Below are positions 4,776 to 56,029 of a stretch of 64,000 nucleotides of DNA, one piece after another; within the stretch, counting starts at the first letter, position 1, and every line of letters begins with the position of its first letter. A program made the position numbers and the translations under genes. Source of the stretch: Bryobacterales bacterium (lineage in GTDB: Bacteria; Acidobacteriota; Terriglobia; Bryobacterales; UBA6623); the NCBI GenBank assembly GCA_965213745.1, contig CBDBZZ010000025.1, forward strand, positions 87,995 to 151,994, in the 5' to 3' direction. Under the pieces are notes generated by a model. That model saw only the letters and a program-made list of their open reading frames with translations, ran no database searches and was not told the DNA's origin.

Positions 4776-5507
4776 GCTTTTTATATTACTAAGTCAGCGA
4801 TGCTGCACCAAGACTTGCAATTCTGTGATTCATGATACCTATGTTCAGTTCGGCATGGACTTCCAGTCCAAAAGTCTAGTCCCTGTGAAATTTTGTTTCC
4901 GGGTACGCCGTCCGGTTCGGTGCCCGCCCTGCCCGCTCGAGGCTGGAACATGGCCAAAGCCACCAGTCTCGCGACGCGCAAACGGTGGACTATCTGTAGG
5001 GATGGAGCGTGGCATGGTCCAGAACACCGCAAATGGTTTGGTCCCGGCCAAGCAACTCGAGGAGCAACCCTGCCATTCCCCCTGCGGCGAGGCCCCCCAC
5101 ACCGGCGCTCGGCGACCGCGTCGCTCAGATGCTCGCTGCCAGCCGCGCTCCCGCACGAGGTGCGATCACGGTACGGGCCAGACTACCCCAGCAGCGCTCC
5201 GCACCTCCGGCCGTGACCGGCAACCAGCAGGAAAACAGCGCATCGCCGGATCCGCTGCAATCCATTGGCGAACCATTCTCGGACAGGGACAGGACCCGTT
5301 GCGCCGGACAACCTCACTTCGATCCTTGCGTGGAATCCAGACCGCCCAAGCAAACGGTCGCCGCCTTTCGCCAGAACGCTCACGCCCGGTGCGGCGTCGG
5401 CAACCCAGCGCCCATGATTACTCTGGCTATCTCGCGGCGCAGCCAACGGACATCCATGCCACCAGCCTCCCCGGCAAGATCCTCGAGAGACGCACGTTGT
5501 CTTGACT

Positions 5508-8132: not shown

Positions 8133-8332
8133 CCGGCACCGGCTGCCGCCCGCCTCTGCGCTGCGGAGAGCGCAACAGGACGATAATCGAAGAGCATGAG
8201 CCCCGGCTCGCCCGACGGACTCGCTTGGAGCAGCCCGGCCCAGAGTTCCTGTTGCCGATAGCCGACTCCAGAATCGGCGGAACCGTTGCAGCCTCACGCC
8301 GAGCGCCCTTGGCTGATGAGAGCGATTACCCA

Positions 8333-10637: not shown

Positions 10638-12167
10638 GTGGCTACAATTCACCGAGGAGCACACGGAATGCTTAGGAACTCCCGCCGAATTTCACCTGCT
10701 TGGCTCGCTTGCTGCCTCGGGGCGACCGTCGTTTGCTGTGCCTTCGGCTCCGAGCGAAATCAGCGAGCCCCCAACATCGTCTTCATCCTGGCCGACGACC
10801 TCGGCTGGCGGGATACGGCTGTTTACGGCAGCCACTTCTACGAGACACCCAACATCGACGCCCTAGCTCGGCGAGGGATGCTCTTCACCAACGCCTACGC
10901 CGCTGCAGCTATCTGCTCCCCCACCAGAGCCAGCATCCTCACCGGCCTCCATCCCGCCCGGATCGGCATCACGACCGCCAGCGGCCATCTGCAGCGGGAG
11001 GTGCTGGCCAAGCAGCTCCGCCGCAAGGGCGCGAAGAACCAAGCGGCGTTGGTGGCCGATAGCGTCACGCGCCTGAAGCTCGAGTACTTCACGCTGGCCG
11101 AGGCGCTCCAAGGGGCGGGCTACCGCACAGGCCACTTCGGCAAGTGGCACCTCGGCCGCAAGCCCTACGACGCATTGCACCAGGGCTTCGACCTCGACCT
11201 GCCAGGCTTTCCCGGCCCCGGGCCGTCAGGCGGCTACCTCGGTCCGTGGTCGTTCTGGAACGGGCAGGGGCGGGCAGGCGAACACATCGAGGACCGCATG
11301 GCAGCGGAAGCCTCGAAGTTCATGCACGAGCACCGCGACCGCCCCTTCTTCCTCAACTACTGGGCCTTCTCGGTCCACGCTCCGATTCAAGGCAAGCCGG
11401 AGCTGGTCGACAAATACCGCGGAAAGGCCAACCCGGACCATCCCCAACGCAATCCGATCAACGGCGCGATGGTCGAGAGCCTGGACGACGCCGTCGGCAC
11501 ATTGGTCGCCACGCTCGACGAACTCGGCATCGCCGACGACACAATCATTGTCTTTTTCTCGGACAACGGTGGCATGGTCCACCGTTTCGACGGGGGCTCA
11601 GCCGTGACGAGCAACGCGCCGCTACGCAGCGGCAAGTCGTCGATCTACGAGGGTGGAGTTCGCGTACCGCTGATCGTCGTCTGGCCGGGAGTCACCGCCC
11701 CGGGCTCGCGTAGCGACGAGATCGTCCAGAGCATCGACTTCTACCCGACTCTCATTGAGATGACGGGCATACCTAGCGAGCAGCACCAAGAGATCGACGG
11801 CACGAGCATCGTGCCTGCCTTGCAGGGAGGCACAATCGACCGCGGAGCCGTCTTCGTCCATGCCCCGCACTACACGCCGGCCACACTGCATCGTCCCAGC
11901 ACATCGGTGCGGCAGGGCCGCTGGAAACTGATCCGGTTTTACTGCGACGGACCGCAGCAAGCGGATCGCTTTGAACTCTACGACCTTGAGCGCGACATCG
12001 GCGAGGAGCACGACCTGGCCGCTCGGGAACCCAGCGTCGTAGCAGGCCTGAAGCGACTCATCGCAGGCTTTCTCCAGGAAACCAGGGCGGTGATTCCGCA
12101 ACCCAACCCGGCCTATGAGGAGGGCTTGAGCCCGTTTCCTAACGGGCCCGCCCGCAAGGCTGGCTAA
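10638..12167 (+). CDS. formylglycine-dependent sulfatase (arylsulfatase A family)
   Basis: 509 aa with a signal peptide, PNIVFILADDLGW, and the active-site CSPTRASILTG (C-x-P-x-R). The true start may be the internal ATG at 10668 (MLRNSRRISPAW). Confidence 0.9.
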   Translation: MATIHRGAHGMLRNSRRISPAWLACCLGATVVCCAFGSERNQRAPNIVFILADDLGWRDTAVYGSHFYETPNIDALARRGMLFTNAYAAAAICSPTRASILTGLHPARIGITTASGHLQREVLAKQLRRKGAKNQAALVADSVTRLKLEYFTLAEALQGAGYRTGHFGKWHLGRKPYDALHQGFDLDLPGFPGPGPSGGYLGPWSFWNGQGRAGEHIEDRMAAEASKFMHEHRDRPFFLNYWAFSVHAPIQGKPELVDKYRGKANPDHPQRNPINGAMVESLDDAVGTLVATLDELGIADDTIIVFFSDNGGMVHRFDGGSAVTSNAPLRSGKSSIYEGGVRVPLIVVWPGVTAPGSRSDEIVQSIDFYPTLIEMTGIPSEQHQEIDGTSIVPALQGGTIDRGAVFVHAPHYTPATLHRPSTSVRQGRWKLIRFYCDGPQQADRFELYDLERDIGEEHDLAAREPSVVAGLKRLIAGFLQETRAVIPQPNPAYEEGLSPFPNGPARKAG

Positions 12168-17550: not shown

Positions 17551-18584
17551 TTACTGAAGACCAGAATTTCAAGGTCCGAAAAAACGTGGTCTTGCAGTTC
17601 ATGGGAAGAAAGTCAGTGGCCCAGATAAAGTCCTGCGTCTCTTGCTCCATACGCACGATCTATCGTTGGACCTCACGCTTCTGTCCAAGAGGCATGGAGA
17701 ACCTGCGGGATCGCCAAAGAACGGGACGACCGCGCCAAGGGACAGACCGGCACGTTGCTTGGATTCGCATCGTTGTCGGAGACCAAGACCCCGCTCAAGG
17801 CCCATGCGAGTTCGCTTGGCGGACCGCGCAGCGAGTGCGCCAAGCCTTGGGGGAGAAGTTCGGCAGCGTCTTGAGCGCCTCCCCGGTGCGCCGGATCCTG
17901 CGGCGGCTCCAGCTCCCGCCGCAGCGGCCCCAGCGGCGCGCTACCCAGTACGAGCCCGCTGACGTGCAGCGCTGGCAAGACCCAGAGTTTCCCAAGCTCC
18001 TACGCCGTGCCCGGGAGTGGGGAGCCCTGCTCGCCTGCGCCGACGAGTCCGGCCTGACTGCGCCGAGCGTGTACGAGCGCACCTGGGGCCTCTGCGGTCG
18101 GCCCCCCGTCGGGCGGGTGGCCAGCGGACGCTTCCGCCTCCACCGGCTGGCGGCCAGCAGCCCGGAGAGCCAGCTCGAGGACAGGGTGTGGGAAGGCCCT
18201 GTCACGGCGGAGGTCTTCCGGGAGTTCCTCCAGCAGCTCGCGGAGGAAGCAGACCGGAAGATCCTGGTAGCGGTCGACAATTGCAGGATGCACCGCGCCC
18301 GGACAATCCAGGAGTGGCTGGCGGCGGACCAAGCCGCAGCAGAGCTGTGTTGGCAGCCGGCCTACTCGCCGCAAGTCAATCCGGTGGAACTGCTAGGGGC
18401 CTTGGTCCAGCGGCGGGCCAGTCGCAAGCTGAGCAAGACCGCAGCACAGCTTCGCGACAACCTGGAAGCTGCTTGCCAGTCTTTGCCCGGAGTTCCGGAA
18501 CAGGTGCGGGCCTTCTTGCGAGAGGCAGACTGCCAGTCTATTCTTGCCTGTATTCTGAGGACACGCCTTTTGACGCGATCTGTA
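17551..18584 (+). mobile_element. IS630-family element (subtype A), apparently full length (1034 bp)
   Basis: Termini are TACTGAAGACCAGAATTTCAAGG (17551) and ...CCTTTTGACGCGATCTGTA (18584), with TA at both ends. It contains the only uninterrupted transposase ORF in the window. Confidence 0.75.
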
Positions 18585-18635
18585 TCGACCACGCGATCGG
18601 TGCCTGTGTTGGGAACGATCCTCATCGCATCCTGA
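17586..18635 (+). CDS. IS630-family transposase (HTH + DDE)
   Basis: 349 aa: ...IRTIYRWTSRF...NLRDRQRTGRPRQ (HTH), ...LLACADESGL...DNCRMHRARTIQEWL...QPAYSPQVNPVE (D, D, E region). The ORF has no stop inside the element and reads about 50 nt into flanking DNA. Confidence 0.8.
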   Translation: MVLQFMGRKSVAQIKSCVSCSIRTIYRWTSRFCPRGMENLRDRQRTGRPRQGTDRHVAWIRIVVGDQDPAQGPCEFAWRTAQRVRQALGEKFGSVLSASPVRRILRRLQLPPQRPQRRATQYEPADVQRWQDPEFPKLLRRAREWGALLACADESGLTAPSVYERTWGLCGRPPVGRVASGRFRLHRLAASSPESQLEDRVWEGPVTAEVFREFLQQLAEEADRKILVAVDNCRMHRARTIQEWLAADQAAAELCWQPAYSPQVNPVELLGALVQRRASRKLSKTAAQLRDNLEAACQSLPGVPEQVRAFLREADCQSILACILRTRLLTRSVSTTRSVPVLGTILIAS

Positions 18636-19694: not shown

Positions 19695-20303
19695 CACGGC
19701 GTGCTTTGGTGATCGACCAACTCGGAGCGGCAGGAATTTGCGCCAGATCGCAACTGATTAAATCACTCAATATCTGGAAGGTAAATTACACGGTTTTTCT
19801 TCCAAGAAATGAGATCTATCTATGGATAAATATCCCTGCTAAAAGGAGTTTTACCGCAAGAAAATACCATGATCTCCTGGTGCTCTTGGAACTCTTCAAA
19901 GGCTTCTTCGCTTGATTCCGATGACACAAGATGTTGAACGGATTTGCAGGTTTGAGGGTTCAAGGCACGGGTTTCGGTTGTGCAGCAGCAGACAGGCACT
20001 TTTGTAGCTGCCGAGTCCGGTTGGTCCCGACACCACCGAGTTATCACCGACTTCTAGTTCGCGGCGTTCTGAGATCGACAATTGGCTGCCGCTTTCCTCG
20101 GCCATTGCAAGCTCCGGTGTTCGCGATGCGAACCACCAACGGTCCTGGGACCTAACCAAAAGACAGCGTCCGCCCCGCGCACGCCTGTGTCGACCAGCCA
20201 CAGCATCACCCCGCGGCGAATGCAGAACCAGTTCGAGCCAAAGCTTGCCTTGCGGAGGATTGCCGGCCCGCGGGGACCCTCAGCTACACTCATCAACGGA
20301 CCT

Positions 20304-22074
20304 ATGCTCCGTGCGTACCTTTCCATGATCGCGCTGCCTCTGCTCCTTGCACCAGCTCTGGCTGAGCAAACCAGCCGACCCAATATCGTCTTGATCGTGA
20401 CCGACGACCAAGGGTGGTGGGACCTTGGCATGCGCGGCAACGAGCACATCCACACTCCCAGCCTAGACCGGCTCGCCAGCGAAGGGGTCGAGCTGACGCG
20501 CTTCTATGTGGAGCCGGTCTGCGCCCCGACTCGCGCTGGGCTTATGACCGGCCGCCACTACCTCCGCACGGGCCTGTACAACACCCGCTTCGGAGGCGAC
20601 ACCCTCCACCTCGACGAAATCACGCTTGCGGAGGCTCTGCGGAACGCGGGTTACCGCACGGGCATGTTCGGCAAGTGGCACTTAGGCGAATACCGTCGAT
20701 TCCACCCCGAGCAGCGTGGATTCGACGAGGCACTGTTCTTCTCGGCGGGCCACACAGAAAGGTACTGGGAGCCCGACTTCCTCCTGCAGAGAGGCAGCCC
20801 TGTGCATGCCCGGGGCCATATCACCGACCTGCTCACCGATGCGGCGGAGACTTTCATCCGCACGCGGGGCAGCGGCCCGTTCTTTCTCTACCTGGCCTAC
20901 AACGTGCCGCACGCCCCGCTCTTCGTGTCCGACCAGCTGCACGAGAAGTACCCGCGCTCAGGGGCTCGATTCGCAGACCGCCAGAATCTACGGCCTGATC
21001 GAGCAATTGGACGCAGCGGTCGGACGCCTGCTGCGGACACTGGACGACGAAGGGCAGCACGAAAACTCGCTCGTGATCTTCATGAGCGACAACGGAGGCG
21101 TGAGCCGGCACTACAGAGCCGGCCTGCGGGGCGGCAAGGGTTCGGTCTACGAAGGCGGTGTGCGCTCACCCTTCTTCGCACGCTGGCCCGGCAAGTTCGA
21201 AGCCGGCCGCAAAACGGCGGCGCGGGCGACACATCTGGATTTGTTCCCGACTCTGGCAGAGATAGCCGAAGCGGAGACACCGAGCGACAGGGCTCTCGAC
21301 GGCCGCAGCCTGCTGCCGCTGCTCACCGGAGAGACCGACGAGAGCCCCCACCCGCGGCTGTTCCATATCTGGGATCGGCACAGGCCGAGCCTGAAGTCGC
21401 GGTGGGCGGTGGCTGGCCCTCGGTACAAGCTTGTGGGCGACGAGCTGTACGACCTCCGGAACGACTCCGGGGAGCAGCGCGACATCGCCGCCGAGGCACC
21501 GGACATAGCCGCCCAACTCAGGCGGGAGTTCACCGAGTGGCTTACGGACGTGACCGCTGGACAGACCTTCGAACCGCTGCCCATTCCCGTCGGGGACCCA
21601 CGGGAGAACCCTGTTGACCTGCTGCCGAGCTGGGCCCGCCACAAAGGCCGGCACGCGAGCGTGGTCCATCCGTATCACCGCGGGCCCACCGAGCCGGCAG
21701 CGCTCGGAGAGCAAGCGGCGGAAGACTCAACCGTCTACACCTTCGGCGCGTACTATTGGGACACCATCGAGGGGTGGCGGGAACCTGGCGAGACGGTTGC
21801 GTGGAAACTCGACATCGAGGCGTCCGGCACCTACGACATCACCCTGGTCTACGGCTGCGACCTCACGGATGCCGGAGGGGAGTACAGGGTGCGAGTGGGA
21901 GACCAAGCCATCGCGGGCAAGGTGCATCCAACAACGGGGCGAAGCTTTTTCGAGGCCCGCCGCATCGGCTCTGTGCGGCTGGGAGCGGGTCCGGCGGTGC
22001 TCCGGGTGGCAGTAGTCTCCGCATCAGGTCGGGACCTGATGGCCCTGAACCGCGTGCGGCTTGAACGGCGCTAG
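20304..22074 (+). pseudogene. sulfatase with C-terminal beta-sandwich-like extension, single frameshift
   Basis: Signal peptide, PNIVLIVTDDQGWWD, active-site CAPTRAGLMTG. The frame is lost at about 20950 (AAGTACCCGCGCTCAGGGG; removing one C restores ...HEKYRAQGLDSQTARIYGLIEQLD...). It resumes in ORF 20716-22074 (MSDNGG...GGKGSVYEGGVRSP). Confidence 0.8.
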
Positions 22075-22261
22075 GGCCGATCGCAGCACGGTCGGCTCGT
22101 ACAAATCACCCCGGTGCGGTCGAAAGCTAGGGCGTGTTCACGCCAATGCAGGGCATCGACGATGAGTGCGAAGAGGATGAATCCCCGGTCGCACGCCCAA
22201 GGCGCGAATCGCGTACTGACCGGACCAAAATCCGTGTCGACGAAATCCACTTTTCGCTTGT

Positions 22262-23305
22262 CATAATCGGTCCGTTTGAAGTACATTATTTGCATGGATA
22301 TTCGAACCATAATTTCCTTCCCAAGACTTTTAAAATACCAGCGGTATAAGGTCCGCAAAAAAGCGATTCTGTATCTCAGGGATGGAGAGAGCATTGCCGA
22401 AGCTGCGGCGAGGTTCTCCGCCGCAACACACATCTCGAAGCGCTGGACCGCCCGCTATGCTCTGGGTGGATGCGGGAATCTCCAGGATCGCCAGAGAACC
22501 GGCAGGCCGCGGCAGGGGACCGCCGAGCACGCCGACTGGACCTATGCCGCGGTGGTCGACAAACCCCCGCGCAGGGCCAGTTCGCGTGCGTGCTGGGGAC
22601 CGTGCAGCGGGGCCGCCGGGCCTGGCTGGACAGGGGCAGCCTCGCGCTCGGCCTCCGCCCGGGGCGGCGGAGCCTGCGGCGGCTCGGGCTCCTCCCGCAG
22701 CGGCCCCGGCGGCGGGCCTGCCGCTCCAGGCCCGGCAACGGACGGCGCTGGCAGGAGCGGGAGTTCCCCGCAAGCGCCCGGCGCGGACGAGTCCGGCCCC
22801 GCTTCCCGCTGCGTCCCGAGGCGGACCTGGGGAGGGCGGGGCCCACACGCGGTTCCGCCGGCCCAGGCGGGCCGCGAGCAGCCCGGACGGCGGGCTCCAC
22901 GCCACGGGGCCTGAGGGCCGGGCAACCGCCGGAACATGCCGGGGATTCCTGGAGCAGCTCGTCCGGGAGATTCCCCCGCAAGCGCTGCCGGTCGCGGACC
23001 GCGGCAGTCTGCCCGCGGCAGCCGCAATCCGGGAGTGGCTGGCGGAGAACGCGGCGGAGATCGAGCTCCTTCGTCAGCCGGCCTGCTCGCCGGAGGTGAA
23101 TCCTGCGGAACTGCCGCGGGCGTTGGTCCAGCGCAGGGCAAGTCGCTTGGGCCGCAAGACGCAAGCGCAGCCCCCCGCCAACTTGGAAGCCAACCTGGCA
23201 AACTTGGCAAGCGTCGCCGGAACGGGGGCGGTCGTTCCGGCGCGAAGCGGACTGCCGGTATATTCTCGCCGGCACTCTCGGGTTGCGGCTTTTGGCCCGG
23301 TCAGT
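22262..23305 (+). mobile_element. IS630-family element (subtype A-like), heavily degraded
   Basis: N-terminal HTH ...AILYLRDGESIAEAAARFSAATHISKRWTARY...NLQDRQRTGRPRQ. The C-terminal ...IREWLAENAAEIELLRQPACSPEVNPAE is in another frame. Right end GGCCCGGTCAGT resembles the subtype A terminus. Confidence 0.6.
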
Positions 23306-23519
23306 CCCGCCGCCGGGCCGCTGGGTGCCTGCCGGCCCCGGCTGGCAGTGGTCCGCCAGGGTTCGCCGCGGCGAGCTCCGCGCTCCGCCGGTGGGGGGCG
23401 GCTCGGGGAGCGGCCGGGGCGGGCTGCGGCGGGGGGCGGGGCAGCTAGCTGGACGTGACCCCCAGCGGTTCCCGGCCCCAGTTCGCCCGCCCCCAGGTGC
23501 CGACTGCAGCAGTGGCAGC

Positions 23520-23651
23520 CGCAGGGAGGGTCCCTTCCTGGCCTTTATTCCCTTCAGGGGCGCTCTGCCAGTTGAGGTGCTGTGCTTCGCGGGCAGTATC
23601 GGCGACATCGGCATCCGAGAAGATGCCTACGCTCCGTAGCGCGGACTCGCC
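23520..23651 (+). mobile_element. possible IS5-family right-end remnant
   Basis: Ends ...GGACTCGCC immediately before CTAG (23652-23655), like the half-site CACGCC-CTAG at 26203-26212. The frame ...CASRAVSATSASEKMPTL loosely resembles the fRriATRYeK tail of IS5 transposases. Weak. Confidence 0.3.
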
Positions 23652-23934
23652 CTAGGCGCGGTGGAGCGGGTGCAACTAGCTGGGACCCAAGGGCTTGCGG
23701 GCGCACCTGGCGCAGGCCGCCGCACGGGGTGCCGCGCTGCCTGCGCGGCTCAAGCCCGGGACGGGAAGGCTGGCCGGCGCGGCCCAGGCCCCCGCGCCGG
23801 CCCAGGCCTCGCGGCGAGCCCCCCGCTCGAACTGCCCGCCAACGCCCCCGGCCAGGCCTTGCCGAGCGCTCGCACCGAAGCCTCCCGGAGGCACGTTCGG
23901 AGCGGTCGGGCGCGGTTGGCTGTAGGATGCGGCC

Positions 23935-26074
23935 ATGCAGACCTCGGTTCTCAGTGTTGCGCTTGGAGCGGGAGCGGTCGCCGGCCTCGCGACGGGCCCG
24001 CCCGCCGGCCCCCGCCCAAGAAGCCCTTGCCTCGGCAGCGGCCACGACTCGCGACGCCCGCTCCCGCTCCCACACCCCGCTGCCCTTGGACCGCCAGGTC
24101 TCGGCAGCGGGGGTCCGGAACCGCGACGACCTCCGGGCGTTTGTCCGGACCGCCGCACAGTACGCCTTCGGAGCGACCTGGACTCCGGTGGCCCCGGCCC
24201 CGGCCCCGGACAGGGCGGAAGAGTTCGACAGGGTCCGGCGCGCTTTCCACGAGGACGCCCGCTGGAACCGCGGCCAGGTCCATATCTACGTGCATAGCAG
24301 CACGGTGCGCGGGGAGGATGCCAGAACCTTCGTCCACCCGCCGGAGAGTGCGCTGGAAGGCGGCTACCGGGGCCCCCTGATCGACCGGTTCGGCAACGAC
24401 TACTTCAAGGAAACCGAACGGATCGTCACGCAGTTCGGCGGCGGCTACGTGTACTACTCCGCGCCGAGCCCGCTGACGGGCGCCGACGAGCTGAAGGTCG
24501 GCTACGTCCTGCCCCTCGACTGGAACGGAACTCCGGCCGTCATCGGCGCCGGCCTGCACGAGCAGGATGTGCCGGGCGCGTGCTATCCCGGCGCAGTCAA
24601 CGCCCGGAGCTTGGCGGCCGACCCGACGCCGGACCGCTTGCAGGCGTTGGTGCGCTGCGCCGCCTATCGGGTCGGAGCCGGAGGCCTGCTCGCCGCGCGC
24701 GAGCTGGCACTCGATGCGCGCTGGAACGCCGGTGCAATCTACGCTTTCGGCAGCGACCTCGCGGGAGCGCAGGTGTATTCCGGCATCGCCCCCGAGAGGA
24801 ACGGTGAGCCGAGCGAAATCGGCGGCCCAGCGGCGAAGCTCGCCGGTCGGCAGGACGGGCTCGCGGTGGCGGCGGCGTTCGGGGAGTCCTTCCTCTACTA
24901 CGAGCACGAGAACCCCGAGACGGGTGCGCCCCAGCGCAAGGTCGCGTTCGTGAAACGGGTGCTGGCGCAGGGCGCACCGATTCTGGTCGGCTCCGGCTAC
25001 TACCTCGCAGACGGCGTGTCGGTTGCCGACGCCGGTCTGCCGGCGTGCGCGGACAGGGCGGTCGCGGCGAGCGCGATCAACACGCAGGAGGACCTCCAAG
25101 CCTTCGTGCTATGCGCGCGGGACGACGCGGCGCGGCACGGCGCGGAGGAGGCGGCTCAAGGGTTCAACTTCTCCCCGTATTGGAGGTCCCGGCCTTAGTA
25201 CCTGTATGTGAGTCGGCTCCCCTGGTCCGGCCTCTCGGATCCTATCCCCTTGTTCGACACCCGCCTCGCGGTTGTCTGGCAGGACCCGGCAAGCCGCTCG
25301 GTCGATCCGCTCCTGGAGCTCTTCAAAATCGACCTCGTCGAGGAGTTCGGCCGCTCCTTCTTTTCCGAGGAAGCCCGCCTCGCACGGGATTTCGGCGGAG
25401 GCTGGATCTATTCCGCCGGCCGGACCGAGTACAAGGCGTGGCGCACCGCGGTGATCGACGACTGGGACGGAGCGCCCGCGGTGATCGGGGCGGCCATCGC
25501 TCCTCGCCACCTGCCCGGAAACTGCGCTCCGGGGCAGGTCAACGCGGGATTGGTCGCAGCCGCAGCGAGTCCCGAACTCCTGATGGATTTCGTGCGGTGC
25601 GCCGCGCACCGGATCGCGGGGGACGGCTATTCCGCGATCCCCGCACTGACGAGCGATCCGCGATGGAGCAGCGGATCGGTGTACGTCTTCGCAATGGACC
25701 GCTCGGGCATCCAGGTTTTCTCCGGCAATCCCGTCCGGGTCAACGGCAGCCAGTTGCAGGAGTGGGGCGATCCCCTGGCACCGTCCGGGCCGTTTCGCGG
25801 GAGGGACGTGATCAGCGCGGCGGACGCCTTCGGGGAGTCCTTCCTGTACTACAACGCCTTCAACCCGGAAACCGCTCGGACCCAGCGGAAGGTGGCGTTC
25901 TTGAAGCGCGTCGCGGCTCAGGGAGTTCCCGTGCTGATCGGAGCGGGGTACTACCTTGCGGACGGAGACGACCCGAACCACGGGCGAAGCGATTTCGGGC
26001 GCGTCGGTGACAGCTACTGGCCGCTCCAGGGATCGGCCGGCGGGAACGCTTCGAGGGCCAGTTCGTCCCATTGA
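23935..26074 (+). pseudogene. secreted four-module sCache_2-like protein, decayed paralogue
   Basis: Paralogue of 26852-28744. The signal peptide MQTSVLSVALGAGAVAGLATGP is in a different frame from the body: there is a 1-nt insertion near 23995 and an extra ~70-nt insert. TAG at 25196-25198 and a scrambled start of module 3 follow. Modules 3-4 continue in ORF 25208-26074. Confidence 0.8.
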
Positions 26075-26851: not shown

Positions 26852-28744
26852 ATGAAGACTTCGGTTCTCAGTATTGCGCTTGGGGTGGGAGCGGTCGCCA
26901 GTATCGCGACGGGCCCGTCCTTGGTCCACGCCCAAGAAGCCCTTGTCTCGGCAGCGGGAATCCGGAATCGCGATGACATCCAGGCGTTTGTCCATGCCGC
27001 CCGCCAGTACGCACTGGCAAACGGGTTCGAAGAGGCCCGGCGCGCTTTCAACGAGGACGCACGCTGGAACAGCGGCCAGTTCTATGTATTCGTGGACGGC
27101 AACACGGTGCGCGGGGAGGATTCCAGAACATTCGTCTACCCGCCGGAGAATTCGCTGGAAGGCGGCTACTGGGGCCCGCTGATCGACCGGTTCGGCAACG
27201 ACTACTTCAAGGAAACCGAACGGATCGCCACGCACTTCGGCGGCGGCTACGTGTACTACTCCGTGCTGAACCCACTGACGGGCGCCGACGAACTGAAGGC
27301 CGGCTATGTCCTGCCCATCGACTGGGACGGAACTCCGGCCGTCATCGGTGCCGGCATTTACGAGCAGGATGTGCCGGGCGCGTGCTACCCCGACACAGTC
27401 AACGCACGGAGCTTGGCGACGGATCCGACGCCGGATCGCTTGCAAGCGTTGGTGCGCTGCGCCGCCTATCTGGTCGAAGCCAGAGGCTTTTTTGCCATGA
27501 ACGCACTGGTGCTCGATTCTCGCTGGAACGACGGTTCAATCTACGCTTTCGGCAGCGATCTCGCGGGAGCGCAGGTGTATTCCGGCATCGCCCCCGAGAG
27601 GAACGGTGAACCGAGCGAAATCGGTGACCTAGCGGAGAAGTTCCTCGGTCGGGACGTGCTCGCGGTGACAGCGGCGTTCGGTGAATCCTTCCTCTACTAC
27701 GAGCACGAGAACCCCGAGACGGGTGCGACCCAGCGCAAGGTCGCGTTCGTGAAACGGGTGCTGGCGCAGGGCGTACCGATTCTAGTCGGCTCTGGCTACT
27801 ACCTCGCAGACGGCGTGTCGGTTGCCGACGCCGGTCTGCCGGCGTGCGCGGACAAGTCGGTCTCGGCGAGCGCGATCAACACGCAAGAGGATATCCAAGC
27901 ATTCGTGCTATGCGCACGAGACTACGCGGCACGGCATGGCGCGGAGGAGGCAGCTCGATCGTTTCGCGATGACCCACATTGGAAGTCCGGGCCCTATTAC
28001 CTGTATGTGAATCGGATCCCCGAGCCCGGTGCCGAGACATTCACCCTCGTGCATGTCCTCCGGGAGCGGGAAGGCCTCTCGTTCGGTCCGCTCTTGGATG
28101 TCTTCAACAACGACTTCTTTCTTGAGGAAGCCCGCCTCGCACGGGATTTCGGCGGAGGCTGGATCTACTACTCCTTCTTGAATCCGGCTTCCGGCCGGGC
28201 CGAGTATAAGGCGTCGTACAACGCGGTGATCGACGACTGGGACGGAGCGCCTGCGGTGATTGGGGCGGGCATTTATCCTCACCACCTGCTCGGAAACTGC
28301 GATCCGGAGCAGGTCAACGCGACATTGGTCGCATCCGAAGCGAAACCCGAGTTCCTGGTGGAGTTCGTGCGATGCGCCGCACACCAGCTCGAGGGGAACG
28401 GCTATTTCGCGACTCCCGAACTGACGGGCGATCCGCGATGGAGCAGCGGATCGGTGTACATCTTCGCAATGGATAGCTCGGGCATCCAGGCTTTTTCCGG
28501 CAATCCCGTCCGGGTGAACGGAAGACAGTTGCAGGAGTGGAGCGATCCCCTGTCACCGTCCGGGCCGTTTCGCGGAAGGGACGTGATCAGCGCGGCGGAC
28601 GCATTCGGAGAATCCTTCCTTTACTACAACGCCTTCAATCCGGAAACCGCTCGGACACAGCGGAAGGTGTCGTTCTTGAAGCGCGTCACTGCTCAGGGAG
28701 TTCCCATCCTGATCGGATCGGGGTACTACCTTCCGGACAAATAG
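26852..28744 (+). CDS. secreted protein of four tandem sCache_2-like modules (A-B-A-B), no TM or output domain
   Basis: 630 aa with signal peptide MKTSVLSIALGVGAVASIATGPSLVHAQE. Each ~150-aa module ends in a Cache-type strand pattern: GGGYVYYSVLNPLTGADELKAGYVLPIDWDGTPAVIGAGIY; FGESFLYYEHENPETGATQRKVAFVKRVLAQGVPILVGSGYY; GGGWIYYSFLNPASGRAEYKASYNAVIDDWDGAPAVIGAGIY; FGESFLYYNAFNPETARTQRKVSFLKRVTAQGVPILIGSGYY. Confidence 0.8.
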   Translation: MKTSVLSIALGVGAVASIATGPSLVHAQEALVSAAGIRNRDDIQAFVHAARQYALANGFEEARRAFNEDARWNSGQFYVFVDGNTVRGEDSRTFVYPPENSLEGGYWGPLIDRFGNDYFKETERIATHFGGGYVYYSVLNPLTGADELKAGYVLPIDWDGTPAVIGAGIYEQDVPGACYPDTVNARSLATDPTPDRLQALVRCAAYLVEARGFFAMNALVLDSRWNDGSIYAFGSDLAGAQVYSGIAPERNGEPSEIGDLAEKFLGRDVLAVTAAFGESFLYYEHENPETGATQRKVAFVKRVLAQGVPILVGSGYYLADGVSVADAGLPACADKSVSASAINTQEDIQAFVLCARDYAARHGAEEAARSFRDDPHWKSGPYYLYVNRIPEPGAETFTLVHVLREREGLSFGPLLDVFNNDFFLEEARLARDFGGGWIYYSFLNPASGRAEYKASYNAVIDDWDGAPAVIGAGIYPHHLLGNCDPEQVNATLVASEAKPEFLVEFVRCAAHQLEGNGYFATPELTGDPRWSSGSVYIFAMDSSGIQAFSGNPVRVNGRQLQEWSDPLSPSGPFRGRDVISAADAFGESFLYYNAFNPETARTQRKVSFLKRVTAQGVPILIGSGYYLPDK

Positions 28745-28949: not shown

Positions 28950-29440
28950 AGCGTGCCCACACTACTGCGCATGGTCATATTCTCAACTGCGGATGCAACT
29001 CACGAAGCACAGCACGAACGCATTGCACCGTACCTTGCGGTGCAGCGTGGCAATGTCCGGGGGGCGAACCCGCCAGTGCTCAACGCCATGCTGTATGTGG
29101 TCGAACATGGCTGCAAATGGCGCGGCTTCCCGAATCGGTTTGGCAAATGGCGCACCATCTACCTGCGGATGCATCGCTGGTCGCAGAATGGCGTGCTGGA
29201 CCGGGTCTTCGAACAGTTGCAACGAGAGCAGATCGTGCGGATCAAGCTGGAAGCGGTGTCGCGGGACAGCACCATGGTCCAGCGGCATCCCGACGGGACG
29301 GGGGCGCTCAAAGAACGGCCCGCAATCCATCGGCCGCTCCCGCAGCGGTTGGACCACCGAGTTGCATAAGGTCGCCGCGGATGTGCGCGCCACCATCCCG
29401 TTCTCGCTCTCACCGGTTCAGGCCCACGACGCACCGGAAG
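28950..29440 (+). mobile_element. IS5-family (IS427/IS5-group-like) element, left half only
   Basis: Starts after CTAG (28946-28949) with AGCGTGCCCACAC. The ORF gives ...NPPVLNAMLYVVEHGCKWRGFPNRFGKWRTIYLRMHRWSQNGVLDRVF (DUF4096-type N-domain). A second frame gives ...KNGPQSIGRSRSGWTTELHKVAAD...SLSPVQAHDAPE. It is then cut off. Confidence 0.7.
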
Positions 29441-30239: not shown

Positions 30240-31420
30240 CTACCGTCCGAACACGATCGCCTCCCGCTCGAACAGGCGGGCGGTCAGTAGGAGCAGCGCC
30301 ACGGCACCGATGCCAGATGCGAGCGCCGCGCTTAGGTAGGAGGAAGGAGCGAACGCAGCCCCGCGAATGATGCCGTTGATCAGGATGTGCTGGCCGAGCG
30401 CCGGAGCGGCAAGTTTCCAAACCGCCTGCTCGACGGGTTCGCCCAAAGTGAGTATCGTCGGCACCATGGCCGCAAAGATCAGGAACGAAGTGTAGGTTTG
30501 CGCTTCCTTGTAGGATCGCACGAGCGTGGCGACTGCCATCTGGAACGCTGCGAACAGAGGGGCCACAGGCAAGACCGCCGCAAGCAAGCCGACAATCTCG
30601 GTAGGCCCTAGGCGGATACCTACCCCAAGCCCGTGCAGGGGTGCGAAGTCTAGCACGAGCCGAATCGACGCGATCGTCAGCATGGCGCCGGCGGAGGAGA
30701 ACGCCGTCGCAGCGAGCCATTTGCCCCCGCGATGGACAGGCGCGGGACCGGATTGATCAGGAGCGGCTCAAGCGAGCGGCGCTCGCGCTCGCCAGCCGTC
30801 GAGTCGATAGCGATCTAGAGCCCGCCGGCGAAGACTGCGATCAATAGGAACATCGGTATGAACGCGAACGTCATCGCCGCCCGTTCCCGGCTTGTGGACA
30901 GCTCGACCGTCTCGATCCGAACGGGCCGAATCACCTCTGGACTGACACCGCGGACGATCAGCCTCTGCTGGGCGAGTTGCCGGCTGTACGCCTCAATCAG
31001 GCGCCGCAGTCGACCGACGGTCGATCCCGTACCCATGTCCGCGCTGTCAACGACGAGGCGCACTTCGGCCGTCTTCGCCGCAGCAAACCGCTGCCCGAAG
31101 TCGTCCGGGATGACCAGCACGAAATCGGCGATGCCTTCGCGGACCTCGGCAATGGGATGGGCACTCGCAGGCCCGACCGCGACTCCCGGCTGCTGTTCCA
31201 GCCATTCGATCAGCGCCGACGCATGCTCGGCCCCGACCACCGGCACGGTTAGAGACTGAGCGCGTTCCATCCGGTCCGACGCCGTGTTCAACGCAAAGAG
31301 GATCATCACCGGAGCGACAGCCAGCGGCAACAGAGCGGAGAGAATCGAGCGGCGGTCGCGGATGCCATCGAGCAGTTCCTTGCGGAACACAACCCCAAGC
31401 GTCGGAAGCAGGCGTTTCAT
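30240..31420 (-). pseudogene. ABC-2 type transporter permease (NatB-like), in-frame TAG plus frameshift
   Basis: MKRLLPTLGVVFRKELLDGIRDRRSILSALL...IPMFLLIAVFAGGL*IAIDSTAGERERRSLEPLLINP... TAG at 30815-30817 sits just before the conserved AIDstAGEkErgtLE block. The C-terminal TM region is in ORF 30240-30683 after a frameshift near 30720. Confidence 0.75.
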
Positions 31421-31485: not shown

Positions 31486-32139
31486 TCAGTGCAATTTGTC
31501 GGGCGTGCCGCTTGCGGTCACCACGCCGCCCGCCACGATCACGATCGAATCGCTCAGCTCCGCGACCTCCCGCATGATGTGGCTTGAGAAGACAACGCAC
31601 TTTCCCGCGTCCCGGAGTTGGCGGATCGCGCCGCGGATCGCCCTTGCGCTCATGACGTCGAGACCGAGCGTCGGCTCGTCCAGCAGCACATGCTGCGGCC
31701 CGTGCGCGAGGGCACGCCCCAAGGCCACTTTCGTGCGCTCCCCCTGCGAGAAGCCCGCCGCCCTTCGGTCCATGATTGCGTGCATCCCAAGCAGTTCGGC
31801 CAGCTCCGTGCAACGCACGTCCACATCGCTCCCGCGCAGGCGCGTGAAGTACCGTATGTGCTCCCGCGCTGTCAGTCGCGCGTAGGTGCCGCGGGATTCG
31901 GGCAACACCCCGCAGAGAGCCCGCGCAGCGAGCGGATCCCTCGTGACATGAACGCCATCCACCGAGACGCGCCCCGCGTCGGGCCTGACCAGTCCATAGA
32001 TCGTGCGCAACGTGGTAGTCTTACCGGCACCGTTCGGCCCCAACAGGGCCGTGACTTGACCGTCCCGCGCCGCGAACGAGACCCCGTTCACGGCTTCGAC
32101 CTCGCCGAACCGCTTGCGGATTCCGTCGACCTCGATCAT
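31486..32139 (-). CDS. ABC transporter ATP-binding protein (ABC-2/NatA-like)
   Basis: Start at ATG 32139: MIEVDGIRKRFGEVEAVNGVSFAARDGQVTALLGPNGAGKTTTLR (Walker A), FSQGERTKVALGRAL (signature), LLDEPTLGLD (Walker B). Confidence 0.85.
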   Translation of the reverse strand: MIEVDGIRKRFGEVEAVNGVSFAARDGQVTALLGPNGAGKTTTLRTIYGLVRPDAGRVSVDGVHVTRDPLAARALCGVLPESRGTYARLTAREHIRYFTRLRGSDVDVRCTELAELLGMHAIMDRRAAGFSQGERTKVALGRALAHGPQHVLLDEPTLGLDVMSARAIRGAIRQLRDAGKCVVFSSHIMREVAELSDSIVIVAGGVVTASGTPDKLH

Positions 32140-33631
32140 GGCGTTTCGGTCACGGCCGAGCCCGCATGCGTCACGAAGAACGGTGGCCGCCGCAACTCTT
32201 GCACACATTGGGCATCGAGTGTGGCGGGCTCCGCCTCGCGGAAGAAATCGGCGATCAGCTCAGGCACGCAACCCGCGGCGGAGACGCCGTGGCTGACGCC
32301 CGGGACGGTGATGTGGCGGGCATGGGGAAGCCTTCCGCCAGGGCGTCGCCCCCCCAGCGCGGCGGCGTGACAGGATCGAGTCCGACCGAGAGAACGAGAG
32401 CGGGCACATCCGACCGAACCGGTTCGCGATAGTTCTCCGCGATGGCACCCCGAGGCCACTCCGCGCAGACTTCTCCCCATCTCCTGGCAAGCGTATCCCC
32501 CAGAAACGTGCCAGCTCCCCTCAATCGGCTCTCGCGGGCGTCGATCCAGGCCAGATCTTCGGCGCAGACCACAGAAAAGAACAGGTCCCAGTCGAATCCC
32601 AGTTCCTCCGGCTGGCCGTCTCCGGCCAGAGCCAAGGCCAGCAAGCCTCCCGCGTTCCCGCCAACCGCCTAGTCGATCAGGAGGGGGAGCATGGAGGCCA
32701 TCTCGGGAACGTAGAGCCACCGCTGGATCAGCCCCGCAGCAAACTCGCTGCTCAATTGAAACTCCACATCGACACCGGTTCTCGGATGCTTCGTAGTGGC
32801 AAGCATCGGCTGGCGCTCTAGCCACGCGGAGAATCTGACCCGAAGGCCAGGGAACCGATTCCGGCAAGGGTCCTCCTGCTCACAGGCATCGAACATCAGA
32901 TCCAGCGCCCGCTGCCCGTCTTCGGGGAACGAAAGAGGCAGTTTCATCCGGAGCGGCACCGAGCTGTCGAACGCAGCACTCCGGACATGCTCGCCATGGC
33001 GGCGTAGGTAGACCAGCGCTGCCCGAGTGCCATACGAGCCTCCCCAGAGATTGACCGTCGAATAGCCAAGCCGCGCGCGCACCTCATCAAGATCGTCCAT
33101 TGCAATCGGTGTCGTATAGAGCCTCAGGTCGGCGTCGTAGCGCTCCCGGCACCGGCGCACGGTCTGGATGAAGTACCGAGGGCTCATCAGGAGCGCGAGG
33201 TCGTCCGCATCCACTTCGCAGCGCAACCCGTTGGAATCGCCGGTGCCTCTCTGATCGACAAAGACGAGATCGCGCTGTCGCCGCACGCGGCGGAACGCCT
33301 CAGCGAGCACGGAACTCAACTGCGCCGCACCCTGACCGGGGCCTCCGGCCAGGACGAATACAGGATCGGGACGGGCGTCCGGGGCCAGAGCGGGAAACAC
33401 GACGACCTTCAAGTCGATCACGCGTCCCGATCCCCATTCCCGGTCCTCGAATACGGCCACCCAGCCACACCGTGCGTCCGGGAGCCCCTCCTCGGGCTCA
33501 CATGCCTCGAGCGCGGCCCGGCGCTCGACTGGTTCTGGCGGCCAGCCTCAGCCAAGCTGCAAGCCGATCGAAGCCGCAAGGACCAGCCCGCAGGTAAGGA
33601 GGGCGACGGGGCGACTTAGTCCAACCCGCAT
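32136..33631 (-). pseudogene. secreted alpha/beta hydrolase (TAP-like / S33 family), two nonsense codons and one frameshift
   Basis: MRVGLSRPVALLTCGLVLAASIGLQLG*GWPPEP... (TGA 33548-33550), ...VFVLAGGPGQGAA...NLWGGSYGTRAAL (nucleophile elbow GxSxG)...LPLLID*AVGGN (TAG 32669-32671). A frameshift near 32330 precedes ...HARHITVPGVSHGV. The stop overlaps the start of the ABC ATPase gene. Confidence 0.7.
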
Positions 33632-33650: not shown

Positions 33651-36119
33651 CTAGAAGTCGTCAAGGTCAAGGCGCCTTCCTTGGTTGAGATCGAGAAAGG
33701 AGTCGGTAGTAACGTCAAGGCTGCCGCCTGCCGCAAGCTCGGTCTTGAACTCGGAGCCCGCATAACGGACGATGAGGGGCTTGCCGAGCTGCGACTCGAT
33801 ACGCGCGTTAACGAGCCGCATGCCCCGCCACTCGATGGCTACCGTGTAGCCACCCCGCGCCCGCAGGCCCTCGATCCGCCCATCCGGGAGCGCGCTCGGC
33901 AGCGCCGGGAGCAGGGAAAGGAAACCAGCCTGGCCATTCTGTACCGCGCTCTCCCGCAACGGCGCACCGTAGGGGTCGTGGCTTTGCAGCAACATCTCCG
34001 CAATTCCCGCTGTTGCGCCGAAATTGCCGTCGATCTGAAAGGGCGGATGGGCGTCGAAGAGGTTCGGATACAGTCCTCCTCGACGTCCGTCTAGATTCCG
34101 TGCCGTCTCGCCGGGCACCGGTGCCAGCAGGTTCCCGAGAATCCTGTAGGCGTGATCCCCGTCGAGCAGCCGGGCCCAGAAATTCACCTTCCAGCCCATG
34201 GACCAGCCGGTCGCCCCGTCGCCCCGGAACTCGAGCGACTTGCGGGCCGCGGCGAACAGATCCGGCGTTCCGTAAGGCGTGATCTCGACACCCGGGTGCA
34301 GGCCGAAGAGGTGCGAAACGTGCCGGTGCTTGTTATCGGGATCGTCGACGTCCTCCAGCCATTCCTGCAACTGCCCGAGACGGCCGATCCGGTTCGGCGC
34401 GATCCGGGCGCGGACCTCGCCTAGGCGCTCGCGCAGCTCCGCGTCGACTCCGAGCACGGTGGCGGCGGCCATCGTATTGCCGAACAGGTTGCGGATGATC
34501 TGGTGATCCATGGTCGGGCCCATGACCAGCCCGCCGTTCTCCGGGGAATTGCTCGGTCCTACGATCAGCCATTCGCCGTCCGGGGATTGAACGAGCGTGT
34601 CGAGGAAGAACTCCGACGCGCCCCGCAGGAGCGGGTACGCGGTCTTGCGCAAGAAGCGCTCGTCGCCGCCGTACAGATAATGCTGCCAGAGGTGCTGGCA
34701 GAGCCAAGCGCCGCCCGTGGGCCAGATGCCGTGGTTCGAATGGTTGATCGGCGCAGTGCCACGCCACAGGTCGAAGTTATGGTGGAGCACCCAGCCGCGA
34801 GCCCCATAGTGCTCGCGGGCCGTCTCGGTGCCCGCCTCGGCGACTTCGCGGAGCGCTTCGAACAACGGCCCGTGCGTCTCCGGCAAGTTCGTGGCCTCCG
34901 CCGGCCAGTAGTTCATCTCGGTATTGATGTTGACGGTGTACTTGCTCTCCCAAGGAGGCTGGTCGGAGTCGTTCCAGATGCCCTGTAGATTGGCGGGCTG
35001 GCACTTCCCGCGGCTCGACGCGATGAGGAGATACCGCCCGTACTGGAAGAGGAGTGCAAGGAGTTGAGGGTCCGACCTCCCGGCGAATCGCTCGATGCGC
35101 TCGTCCGTAGGCTCGTCGGCCGCCAATGTCCGGCCGAGGTCCAGATGCACTCTCTGGAACAGTGCCTGATGGCTGAGCTCATGTTCGCGCCGGAGTTCCG
35201 CGTACGGTATGTCGCGCGCCTGCTCAAGGACGGCTAGGTTGCGCTGGGCCGGATCGGCGGAAACATCGCGAAAACTGACGAAGTTCGTGGCTCCGGCTAG
35301 CAGGAGCGTCGCCTCGCTGGCACCTTCGACCCGCAACCGCCCTCCGTCGAAGGATACGCTCCCGTCAGTAAGGGCGGCGAGCCGGGCCTCGAAGCGGATT
35401 GCTCCGTCCTCGACCCGTCCTGCCATGCGCAGGACACCGCCGTCTTCGGCAAGCGCACCCACTGGATGAGAACTCCGTAGGCCCGCGGCGAAAGACAACT
35501 GCCGGGTGCCGCTAGCCGTGAGCCGCGCGACGAGAACCTGTCGGGGAAAGCTCGAGAAGACCTCGAGGCGGTGCAACGCCCCCTCGGCCGCGAAATCAAC
35601 GAGCGCAACGGCATCGTCTAGGTCCAGGGATCGCCTATAGCCGCTGATCGCCCCCTCGTCCAGGCCCGTCCTGGTCAGGATCAGGTCACCGAAGGTTTGG
35701 TAGGCCTTTTGGCGCAGGGGCACGCTCATGAAGCGTTCCATGGCCAGGGATTCCGCCTGATCCTGCTTGCCTTCGGCGAGCAACGACCGGATGCGCCCCA
35801 AATATCCCTGTGCGCCGGGATTGGCGTAGCTGTGGGGCCCGCCTTGCCACACGGTGTCCTCGTTGAACTGAATCCGCTCGCTTAACGTTCCACCGAAGAC
35901 CATCGCCCCTAGGCGGCCATTGCCGACCGGCAGCGCTTCGACCCAGCGCTCCGCGGGGCGGCGGTACCAGAGTTCGAGAGGGGTGGATGCGGGCCGGTCT
36001 CCGCAGGCGGGCACACCGAGGCAGGCTGCTGCGGAAGCGAGAAATCCCCGGCGGTCGAGAAGGTGGGGCATTTCGAAGACGGACATTGCGCTTCCCGCCA
36101 TGCGAGGTCTGCGTCTCAC
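33651..36119 (-). CDS. glycoside hydrolase family 95 (alpha-L-fucosidase-like)
   Basis: 822 aa with Tat-like leader ([19 protein letters not shown]). Motifs: [77 protein letters not shown]. Confidence 0.85.
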
Positions 36120-37778: not shown

Positions 37779-38835
37779 TACTGATTTTGCCATAAGTCAT
37801 TGCAAGGAACAACCAGAAACAGTCTAGGCGCAGTCGGCCTCGCGGAAGAACCCCTGCACCTTGGTGGGGTCGGCCTCCAGGGCTCGCAGGGCCTCCTCCC
37901 AGCGCTCCCGGAGCTAGCGGACTGTCCGGACCAGCAGCTTCCCCACCCGGCGCTGGACGACCGACCGGACTTGCTCCGCAGGGTTCAATTCCGGAGAGTA
38001 CGCCGGCAACAGATGAATCTCCACCGGTGCCTCGGTCCGCTCCTTCCAGGCTTCTAGAGGCTTGGATGTGTGGATGCTGTGGCGGTCCACTAGCACGTGA
38101 ATCGGTCTAGCCTCCGTCCGGTCCGGAATCTGCTGCAGGAACTGTTCCAACGTGGCTGCGGTGGCGGTTCCGGCATGGATCCTGGAATAAATTGCTCCCG
38201 CGGGGCTGCTCGCGGAGAGCCTGTTCAGCCGGAACCGCTCCCCCGTTGGCTGGACGACAGGCGTCCGGCCCCGGGGACCCCACGGAGTGCCCCGGTGGGA
38301 GTGCGAGGTCCTGCCGGCCTCGTCGGCCCAGAGCAGCAGGGCTCCCTGCTCCTGCGCGCGCTGGACGAGGGCGGGGTAGGTGACTGCGATCCCAGTCCGC
38401 ACCGCGTCGGCGTTCTGCTGGGAGGACCGGAACTGAGGGCGCTGCGGAGTGAGGCCGAGACGCCGCAGGACCCTGCGCACCGTCGACAGGGACAGTTTGA
38501 CTGGGAACTGGTCGAGGATCCCTGGCCGGACAATTTTCAGCGCCCGGTAGGCGAACTCGAACTGGAGCTGATCGGGGGATTTGTCCCGCAGAGTTGCGAG
38601 GATCAGCTGCATTGGGTCGGGGGAGAGGCAGGGAGGGCGTCCCGGTTTGGGTTGATGTCCGAGAGCCTGGAATCCACAGCAGGCATAGAGACAAATCCAG
38701 GTGCGGATTGTGCGGATGCCGATACCGAATTCCTTGGCCAGGGCTTGGATGGATTTGCCGTGGCGAGCTTGGATCACGACCAGCTTCCTAAGGGGAGGTC
38801 GGGACCGATGGGGAATGCGTCGGAATTCACGAAAT
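37779..38835 (-). mobile_element. IS630-family element (subtype B), copy 1, 5'-truncated, transposase with in-frame TAG
   Basis: Outer terminus TACTGATTTTGCCATAAGTCATTGCAAGG (37779). Transposase reads ...RKLVVIQARHGKSIQALAKEFGIGIRTIRTW...LLWADEAGR...VDRHSIHTSKPLEAW...LPAYSPELNPAE...VRTVR*LRERW. TAG 37914-37916 corresponds to CAG 41477-41479 in copy 2. Homology to copy 2 ends at about 38835. Confidence 0.75.
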
Positions 38836-39494
38836 TCTGGAAGTCGCACGCCAGCATCACCCGCGGCGCGGGCGCCTCCTCCCCCGCCGCACGGGGCACC
38901 GCGGCTAGGCCGAGCCGCTCCAGCTGCGGCACGAGGCCCTGCCAGAGTTCGGCCGCCAGGCCCGGATCGATCGGCTTGTGCATGCACAGCAGCGGTGCCC
39001 GCCCCAAGCCTGCACCCAGTAGCTCGCCGCCGCCGGCAGCGCCAGGCGCTCCCGCGAGACGCAGGGCCGGGCCCAGTGGCCTTGCCCGCTGTAGGTCTGG
39101 ACATGCCCGTCGCCCAGCAAGGTGGCGGTCAGGCCGGGCTCCTCGGCGGCCCCAGCCTCCGGCAGCGCCCCGAGCTAGGCCTGCACGGCAGCCGCGTCGG
39201 CGGTCAGTTGGCGCAGCTTGCGCCGCAGCGTGGGGGCGGTGGCCTGCAGCTGTTCCGGGTTGCGGACCCGCGCCAGCAGCAGGAGCACGGAGCGCAGGCG
39301 GTCGGCGTGCTGCAGCAGGGCCGGCACGGCCGTCAACACGCCGCCGTGCCGCACGCCCCGCGCCGGGACGAAGCTCGGCTCCCGTTCGCCCAGCCCGCCC
39401 AGGCTCGCCGCCACGTTTATAATAAATAGCTGGATGCCTAGGACGCGGGATTCCGGCCGTAATCGTATCAGCGAACGCGCCAAGCGGGAACAGC

Positions 39495-44599: not shown

Positions 44600-44621
44600 T
44601 ATTTAATTGCATGATATTACA

Positions 44622-47418: not shown

Positions 47419-47543
47419 GACCCTCCCAGGATAGAACGACCTCGGCCATCTCCCGGGGGATTGACCCGGTTGAGGCCGGCCAACCGTAGCGATGTCTCTG
47501 CCCGGGACCCTCACCGCTGTTTCGGTGGGATATCGCACCACAC

Positions 47544-55150: not shown

Positions 55151-55209
55151 CCCACCTCGCCCTGCGCGTCGTTTTGCGGTCCTGCAGCGGACCGCACCTC
55201 GGACCGCCT

Positions 55210-55950: not shown

Positions 55951-56029
55951 GCGGAGGCTGGACGCGTCGCAGCGGGCCAAGCCGGGATGGGCGCGCTGCG
56001 CAACGAACATCGCGGGCCCGCCGTGGATT

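Follow-up and report, generated by a model that had tools for sequence, protein, structure and literature searches.

No family of extracellular sensor domains in prokaryotes is larger than Cache, which has been treated almost wholly as the input part of membrane receptors. In this work, we describe a protein of 630 amino acids (aa), built of four tandem sCache_2 modules and lacking both membrane anchor and output domain, encoded on the forward strand of a 64,000-nucleotide stretch of DNA (hereafter, the window) from a Bryobacterales bacterium (contig CBDBZZ010000025.1, positions 87,995 to 151,994). We propose, with moderate confidence, that it is an exported, non-transducing, multivalent binder, predicted to capture, retain or tether a carboxylate-bearing ligand.

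The closest described systems are the sCache_2 domains of chemoreceptors, such as those of V. parahaemolyticus (4EXO/2QHK, with pyruvate), PscD (5G4Y/5G4Z) and Adeh_3718 (4K08), which resemble the 630-aa protein in Pfam family, fold and, as predicted for that protein, extracytoplasmic location, and have in common with it the Tyr/aromatic/Tyr/Lys residues of the ligand pocket (PMC12415202). A chemoreceptor, however, carries a single module, two flanking transmembrane helices and a cytoplasmic signalling domain, whereas the protein described here features four tandem modules of two types (A and B), a signal peptide and predicted disulfides, with neither transmembrane helix nor output domain. Moreover, the position of the pyruvate-contacting His of the chemoreceptors is occupied, throughout the family, by Tyr/Phe in A modules and by Ser/Thr in B modules, the third module of the 630-aa protein keeping it as His401.

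Over 90% of Cache domains occur in fusion with outputs, and stand-alone ones are called "highly unusual" (PMC12889525, a 2026 preprint). The haem-binding sCache_heme proteins (Tll0287/DUF3365), the only stand-alone class we found described, are likewise exported without signalling modules (PMC12889525), but are single domains with a CXXCH haem-c motif and proposed redox roles; the six cysteines of the 630-aa protein form no such motif. The alpha2delta and Cachd1 proteins of animals likewise have four Cache modules and no output domain, together with the extracellular location and disulfides that are only predicted here, and are the top whole-chain Foldseek matches. Their modules, however, are of the dCache_1 type and are accompanied by a VWA domain, for which the 630-aa protein has no Pfam match; global TM-scores are 0.10-0.16, and nothing points to direct homology other than at superfamily level. 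Periplasmic solute-binding proteins are comparable in being exported, soluble, output-less and often encoded away from their partners, as well as in the ligand binding predicted here. They differ in having a two-lobed Venus-flytrap fold with one site, as opposed to a Cache/PAS-like fold with four predicted sites, and no solute-binding Pfam family is found in the 630-aa protein; SBP_bac_5 is limited to certain relatives, where it forms a distinct domain fused to the array. The Cache domain is familiar, the architecture is not: no description of tandem output-less sCache_2 arrays, nor any link between Cache domains and sponge symbionts, was found in the literature, as far as subscription journals are covered, which is in part.

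The gene, taken from the list of open reading frames (ORFs), and the modules (M1 to M4) into which its product was cut are as follows:

26852..28744, forward strand: intact four-module sCache_2 gene, with ATG start and stop codon at 28742-28744
26852..26932, forward strand: Sec-type signal peptide, residues 1-27, predicted cleavage between VHA and QE, read by eye
26936..27385, forward strand: M1, type A, residues 29-178, without the Cys pair that most homologues have
27386..27847, forward strand: M2, type B, residues 179-332, Cys178-Cys203 pair
27848..28300, forward strand: M3, type A, residues 333-483, Cys332-Cys354 pair
28301..28741, forward strand: M4, type B, residues 484-630, Cys483-Cys508 pair

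An initial annotation, made from the letters alone, had described a signal peptide followed by four sCache_2-like modules in an A-B-A-B order, with a shared C-terminal Cache motif, recurrent cysteines and no transmembrane helix or output domain, and all of these features were recovered. Pfam sCache_2 (PF17200) matches four stretches of the protein, scoring 81.4 bits where the gathering cut-off is 25, and the C-terminal motif is found in all four modules by alignment. In pairwise BLASTP comparisons, M1 and M3 are 49% identical (E=1e-45) and M2 and M4 51% (E=6e-48), while cross-type pairs are only 25-34% identical (E=1e-7 to 4e-16). Because same-type modules are so much more alike than cross-type ones, the A-B-A-B order is, as judged from these alignments, real and far beyond chance. 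Between proteins, modules of one type are only a little more alike at the same position than at different ones: 0.60 versus 0.54-0.56 for A modules, and 0.55 versus 0.44-0.45 for B modules. The A-B duplication is probably older than the spread of the family, the signal being ambiguous for the 630-aa protein. The dCache_2 model (PF08269), a domain described as a duplication of sCache_2 (PMC4822843), also scores on four stretches of the protein (84.5 bits), but by one-module matches only, the best one covering just positions 86-184 of the 298 of the model. No dCache_2 match in the 630-aa protein spans both modules of that model, and the Pfam results do not show that the A-B pair equates with the dCache_2 double domain.

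The Cache identity of the modules holds both by profile and by fold, and the other folds that the initial annotation had allowed for did not emerge. An AlphaFold2 model of the 630-aa protein, built on 40 homologues, has a pLDDT of 87 and a pTM of 0.88; since the latter is high for a four-domain chain, we infer a defined, rigid arrangement of the four modules. In the secondary structure of the model, each module is a PAS-like alpha/beta domain with a long N-terminal helix, and in Foldseek searches of the PDB single modules match 4EXO, 2QHK, 4K08 and 5G4Y, with target-normalised TM-scores of 0.60-0.72 and probability 1.00. By sequence alone, a profile of the A-type modules matches 4K08 (E=2e-7); the family profile was needed, single A modules giving no phmmer match in the PDB. 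No solved chain sharing the whole four-module arrangement is found among the Foldseek PDB matches, and the whole-chain matches to alpha2delta-1, Cachd1 and PpsR have a root-mean-square deviation (rmsd) above 25 Å.

The N-terminus (MKTSVLSIALGVGAVASIATGPSLVHA, followed by QE) is the sole strongly hydrophobic 19-residue segment of the protein, and residues 1-27 are the sole long low-confidence stretch of the AlphaFold2 model (pLDDT <50). No transmembrane helix is found after the signal peptide, the next-highest 19-residue segment scoring 1.35 on the Kyte-Doolittle scale. In the family, an N-terminal hydrophobic segment is present in 136 of 152 full-length members, and an internal transmembrane-like segment in just one of them.

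The six cysteines lie at residues 178, 203, 332, 354, 483 and 508, exactly where GAC, RCAA, PAC, LCAR, GNC and RCAA had been read. Each pair combines a Cys at the module boundary with one placed 22-25 residues further on, in the first helix of that module. M1 is devoid of both cysteines, and modules lacking the pair lack both. Across the family, module starts carry both cysteines 502 times and one alone 19 times, most of the latter being mis-anchored regular-expression matches. Such co-occurrence suggests an intramodule disulfide, which would be present once in each of modules 2-4, and therefore an oxidising, extracytoplasmic location. The signal peptide and the fusion partners described below, exclusively of extracytoplasmic types, further support this location.

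In 4EXO, pyruvate is contacted by Y96, F98, H109, F148, W150 and K161; its carboxylate is bound by Y96, F148 and K161, and H109 selects pyruvate over lactate, a Leu at that position corresponding to lactate (PMC12415202). The equivalent positions, mapped by direct alignment to 2QHK/4EXO (M4), by the A-module profile and by module alignments, are:

Y96: Y78 in M1, Y231 in M2, Y383 in M3, Y536 in M4
F98: F80 in M1, F233 in M2, Y385 in M3, F538 in M4
H109: Y96 in M1, S244 in M2, H401 in M3, S549 in M4
F148: Y136 in M1, Y283 in M2, Y440 in M3, Y592 in M4
W150: V138 in M1, H285 in M2, F442 in M3, A594 in M4
K161: K149 in M1, K296 in M2, K453 in M3, K605 in M4

In every module, the Tyr, Tyr and Lys positions are kept by 90% or more of the 40 family members compared. 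The H109 and W150 equivalents, both specificity positions, differ between A and B types, the W150 equivalent being the most variable pocket position in the family. B modules also feature an invariant F-x-G-R-D loop (F264-x-G266-R267-D268 in M2). The closest curated NCBIfam entry, named by NCBIfam sensor kinase MctS, gives a weak and partial match. The putative ligand class is best stated as small and anionic, probably carboxylate-bearing; it is kept this broad because in another sCache_2 subgroup a key Arg mediates the binding of phosphorylated C3 compounds (PMC12395807).

A word-indexed search retrieved 402 homologues. Among the best 120 of them, about 42 are proteins of 550-650 aa with four modules and about 73 are proteins of 900-1050 aa with six, the front two being Cys-less. 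In the six-module proteins P0009, P0018 and P0021, the N-terminal 330 residues or so form two extra Cache-like modules with neither the Cys pair nor the conserved Lys, which, to judge from these losses, may be non-binding or bind another ligand. When 1.84 billion cluster representatives were scanned exhaustively with HMMER, only 424 clusters were found, among them A-B proteins of two modules (about 330 aa) as well as larger arrays.

The initial annotation had left open whether homologues are routinely fused to transducers, whether output-less arrays form a family with conserved neighbours, and whether the architecture is already catalogued. MCP, HAMP, histidine-kinase, GGDEF and EAL domains are absent from all 54 diverse representatives scanned, each 300 aa or longer, no transducer fusion occurs among the best 120 homologues, and Pfam identifies no output domain in the 630-aa protein itself. 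Homologues of two, four, six or more modules are output-less, no conserved neighbour accompanies them (see below), and databases name them only "hypothetical protein" or "cache domain-containing protein".

In some members the A-B unit is fused to other domains, all of periplasmic or extracellular types:

SBP_bac_5: P0059, P0121 and P0137
FGE-sulfatase: three reported, including P0123 and P0124
Cu/Zn superoxide dismutase: P0136
cytochrome P460: P0126
LRR: P0125
fn3: P0185
DUF192: one member

The fused A-B units retain the four cysteines and the pocket residues, the exception being the A module of P0185, which is poorly aligned.

Named members come from metagenome-assembled genomes of Bryobacterales, Acidobacteriota and Terriglobia, with a single one from Rhodospirillales, and 36 of the 42 metagenome loci come from metagenomes of Mediterranean marine sponges, with accession sets MKWU, LXNI and LXNJ (PMC5099237, PMC5649159). 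Nearly the whole family comes from sponge-associated material. Several genomes, recognised by contigs of the same length, contribute two or three paralogues to the best 120 homologues, and tandem copies occur: locus L004 (9677-13987) contains a tandem Cache-array pair like that of the window, and L017 (868-8877) two adjacent Cache-array genes on opposite strands. In L006 (9875-14908), a 5-kb series of Cache-array ORFs in shifting frames might represent one very long array interrupted by frameshifts or misassembly.

More distant proteins (30-34% identity), namely P0201 (L056, 6001-12300), P0266 (L055, 1657-3414), P0219 and P0215, consist of 4 to 13 canonical sCache_2 modules and have neither a further significant Pfam domain nor Cys pairs; signal-peptide-like N-termini are seen in P0266, P0219 and P0215. 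A/B alternation is absent from P0219 and P0215 and weak in P0266. On this comparison, alternation marks the sponge clade rather than such arrays in general, and tandem sCache_2 arrays seem to have had more than one independent origin.

The decayed second copy noted in the initial annotation lies just upstream of the intact gene:

23935..26074, forward strand: tandem paralogue, pseudogene

By tblastn with P0007, an intact 700-aa orthologue (83% identity), its signal-peptide remnant is in frame 1 (23935-24000) and its body in frame 2 (24098-26074), and an in-frame TAG (25196-25198) stands where P0007 has a Tyr. Weak Cache matches are still retained in Pfam searches. The pseudogene and the intact gene are 87-88% identical at the DNA level, with a synonymous divergence (dS) of 0.19 and a ratio of nonsynonymous to synonymous divergence (dN/dS) of 0.70. 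For the intact gene, compared with its orthologue in L004, dN/dS is 0.16 (0.19/1.19). Purifying selection acts on the intact gene, not on the neighbouring copy; the dN/dS of 0.16 indicates that the gene is functional and, since homologues share the output-less architecture, the gene is not a truncation. A promoter and terminator scan gave nothing beyond shuffle expectation.

Exact look-ups of P0001 and P0007 gave no record, and the genomic context was taken from relatives. All-against-all clustering of ORFs found no conserved neighbour, no family being present in more than 10 of 53 loci. The commonest neighbour is a sulfatase, found in 10 of the 53. A link with sulfatases, also prompted by the fusion of some relatives to an FGE-sulfatase domain, was considered and rejected: sulfatases are as frequent in the window as a whole (2 in 64 kb, taken as background) as in the flanks (about 1 per 50 kb), and distances and orientations vary.

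The role that we favour may be outlined as follows. The protein would be exported by the Sec pathway to the periplasm, possibly beyond, and would fold as a rigid string of four sCache_2 modules, the last three each stapled by a disulfide between the boundary Cys and the Cys of the first helix. The string would offer four sites of two alternating specificities, A and B, each with a pocket of the carboxylate-binding sCache_2 type; the ligand would be a small anionic, carboxylate-bearing molecule, or such a group displayed on a larger one. As there is neither membrane anchor nor output domain, the protein would act by binding rather than by signalling, the ligand being captured, retained or tethered outside the cytoplasm. 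In the sister proteins, the A-B unit would bring its fused cargo (solute-binding protein, FGE-type enzyme, Cu/Zn superoxide dismutase, cytochrome P460, LRR or fn3) to the ligand. Capture and tethering are not separable on present evidence: variable module number, the enzyme and LRR/fn3 fusions and the conservation of pocket types across paralogues favour tethering or targeting, while the SBP_bac_5 fusions and the closed-pocket precedent of characterized sCache_2 domains favour capture of a free metabolite.

Various observations weigh against this role, or against part of it. The neighbourhood analysis covers linked genes only, and an unlinked membrane partner is compatible with it. The locus is rich in insertion sequence (IS) elements and pseudogenes. 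The pocket residues are generally conserved in sCache_2, and their conservation may thus be partly structural. Finally, all characterized sCache_2 ligands are free small molecules held in a closed pocket, which fits capture better than tethering. Of the two functions initially considered, a ligand binder is favoured; for a partner of a separately encoded transducer no conserved gene was found, although an unlinked one would agree with the data.

Such a partner is central to the first alternative, that of a soluble co-receptor or solute-binding protein: the loaded array would dock on an unlinked membrane transporter, sensor kinase, chemoreceptor or cyclase, feeding uptake or signalling. Orphan, multi-copy genes of this kind resemble orphan families of binding proteins, the pockets are intact, and several relatives (P0059, P0121, P0137) join the array to an ABC-type family-5 solute-binding domain. 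The stimulation of sensors by solute-binding proteins is, moreover, well documented (PMC8050422). We consider this possibility unlikely, in that no transporter or sensor gene recurs beside the gene in the 53 loci, and even the Cache-SBP_bac_5 fusions have no adjoining permease or ATPase genes. Delivery to a transporter would also leave unexplained the fusions to Cu/Zn superoxide dismutase, cytochrome P460, FGE-sulfatase, LRR and fn3, and known binding proteins are not built as arrays of 2 to 13 sites.

The near-confinement to sponge material (36 of 42 metagenome loci) and the existence of LRR and fn3 fusions are also what would be expected of a host-facing, eukaryote-like surface or secreted protein, whose array contacts sponge proteins or matrix in the manner of alpha2delta/Cachd1; indeed, alpha2delta-1 and Cachd1 are the only multi-Cache output-less proteins among the Foldseek matches. 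Their whole-chain superposition is, however, poor (TM-scores of 0.10-0.16, rmsd above 25 Å), the sequence affinity is to bacterial sCache_2 and not to a dCache_1/VWA architecture, transport across the outer membrane is without support, and the conserved small-molecule pocket points to ligand binding: this explanation seems to us quite improbable. That the gene is a functionless remnant, namely the sensor portion left of a receptor after loss of its transmembrane and output regions in IS-rich, decaying surroundings, is largely refuted and scarcely tenable, for, despite the frameshifted sulfatase, broken ABC-2 permease, transposase fragments and pseudogenised paralogue nearby and the missing Cys pair of M1, the dN/dS against the orthologue is 0.16, the full output-less architecture, conserved C-terminus included, is common to about 400 homologues, the signal peptide has been kept and pocket residues are intact in all four modules.

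Within the favoured role of an exported binder, a more specific proposal can be made, which we put forward tentatively and regard as rather doubtful: a lectin-like, non-sensory targeting function, in which the 2 to 6 or more A-B modules of an array would, through avidity, bind a carboxylate group repeated along a polymer, and hold in place enzymes and binding proteins of the symbiont, as an invention specific to sponge symbiosis. The polymer might be, for example, an acidic, pyruvylated or uronic-acid-containing one, belonging to the bacterial envelope or to the extracellular matrix of the sponge, and the cargo held on it would be the Cu/Zn superoxide dismutase, cytochrome P460, FGE-type enzyme, solute-binding protein or LRR/fn3 domains of the fused relatives.

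If correctly interpreted, the family represents a second use of the Cache fold, as a portable, exported, two-module unit, putatively stapled by disulfides, which is arrayed and attached to periplasmic enzymes and binding proteins while its ligand pocket is retained. Identification of the ligand would reveal what Cache does when not signalling. Because the family is nearly restricted to sponge-associated Acidobacteriota, that ligand could point to a metabolite or a matrix component central to the symbiosis. The family is easily testable, since its members are soluble proteins and thermal-shift ligand screening is established for such domains.

Two further damaged genes lie on either side of the Cache pair:

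20082-22074: sulfatase split over two overlapping frames (frameshifted)
30240-31420: ABC-2 permease broken in two, adjoining an intact ABC ATPase (31486-32208)

Mobile-element sequences at 17586-18635, 22276-22914, 28953-29369 and 37914-39104 comprise two IS630-like DDE_3 transposases, a transposase fragment limited to its helix-turn-helix and an IS4/5 DUF4096 fragment. The region 22000-24000, with 71% G+C, contains long overlapping ORFs on both strands, with Pro/Arg/Gly-rich translations, which, the helix-turn-helix fragment aside, look like artefacts of composition rather than genes. The highest G+C content of the window (74-75%), with marked positive GC skew, is reached at 54001-58000, and a 1032-aa ORF (55042-58140) is overlapped by several long ORFs on the opposite strand. 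Two large ORFs, encoding 974 aa (44617-47541, reverse strand) and 433 aa (5009-6310, forward strand), have no Pfam match at E<=1e-5.

A Kelch-repeat protein, of a repeat more typical of eukaryotes, and a Fic-domain protein are encoded at 8114-9355 and 3186-4775, respectively; in L001, too, the orthologous Cache gene has a Fic gene some 3 kb upstream of it, a hint of partial synteny. At 48583-52236 (reverse strand) and 59427-62228 (forward strand), two large outer-membrane barrels resembling TonB-dependent receptors are encoded, one of them with a CarboxypepD_reg domain; L002 and L003 have similar genes close to their Cache gene. These barrels, along with a GH95 fucosidase (33651-36119) and another sulfatase (10638-12167), fit a polymer-scavenging lifestyle of Acidobacteriota.

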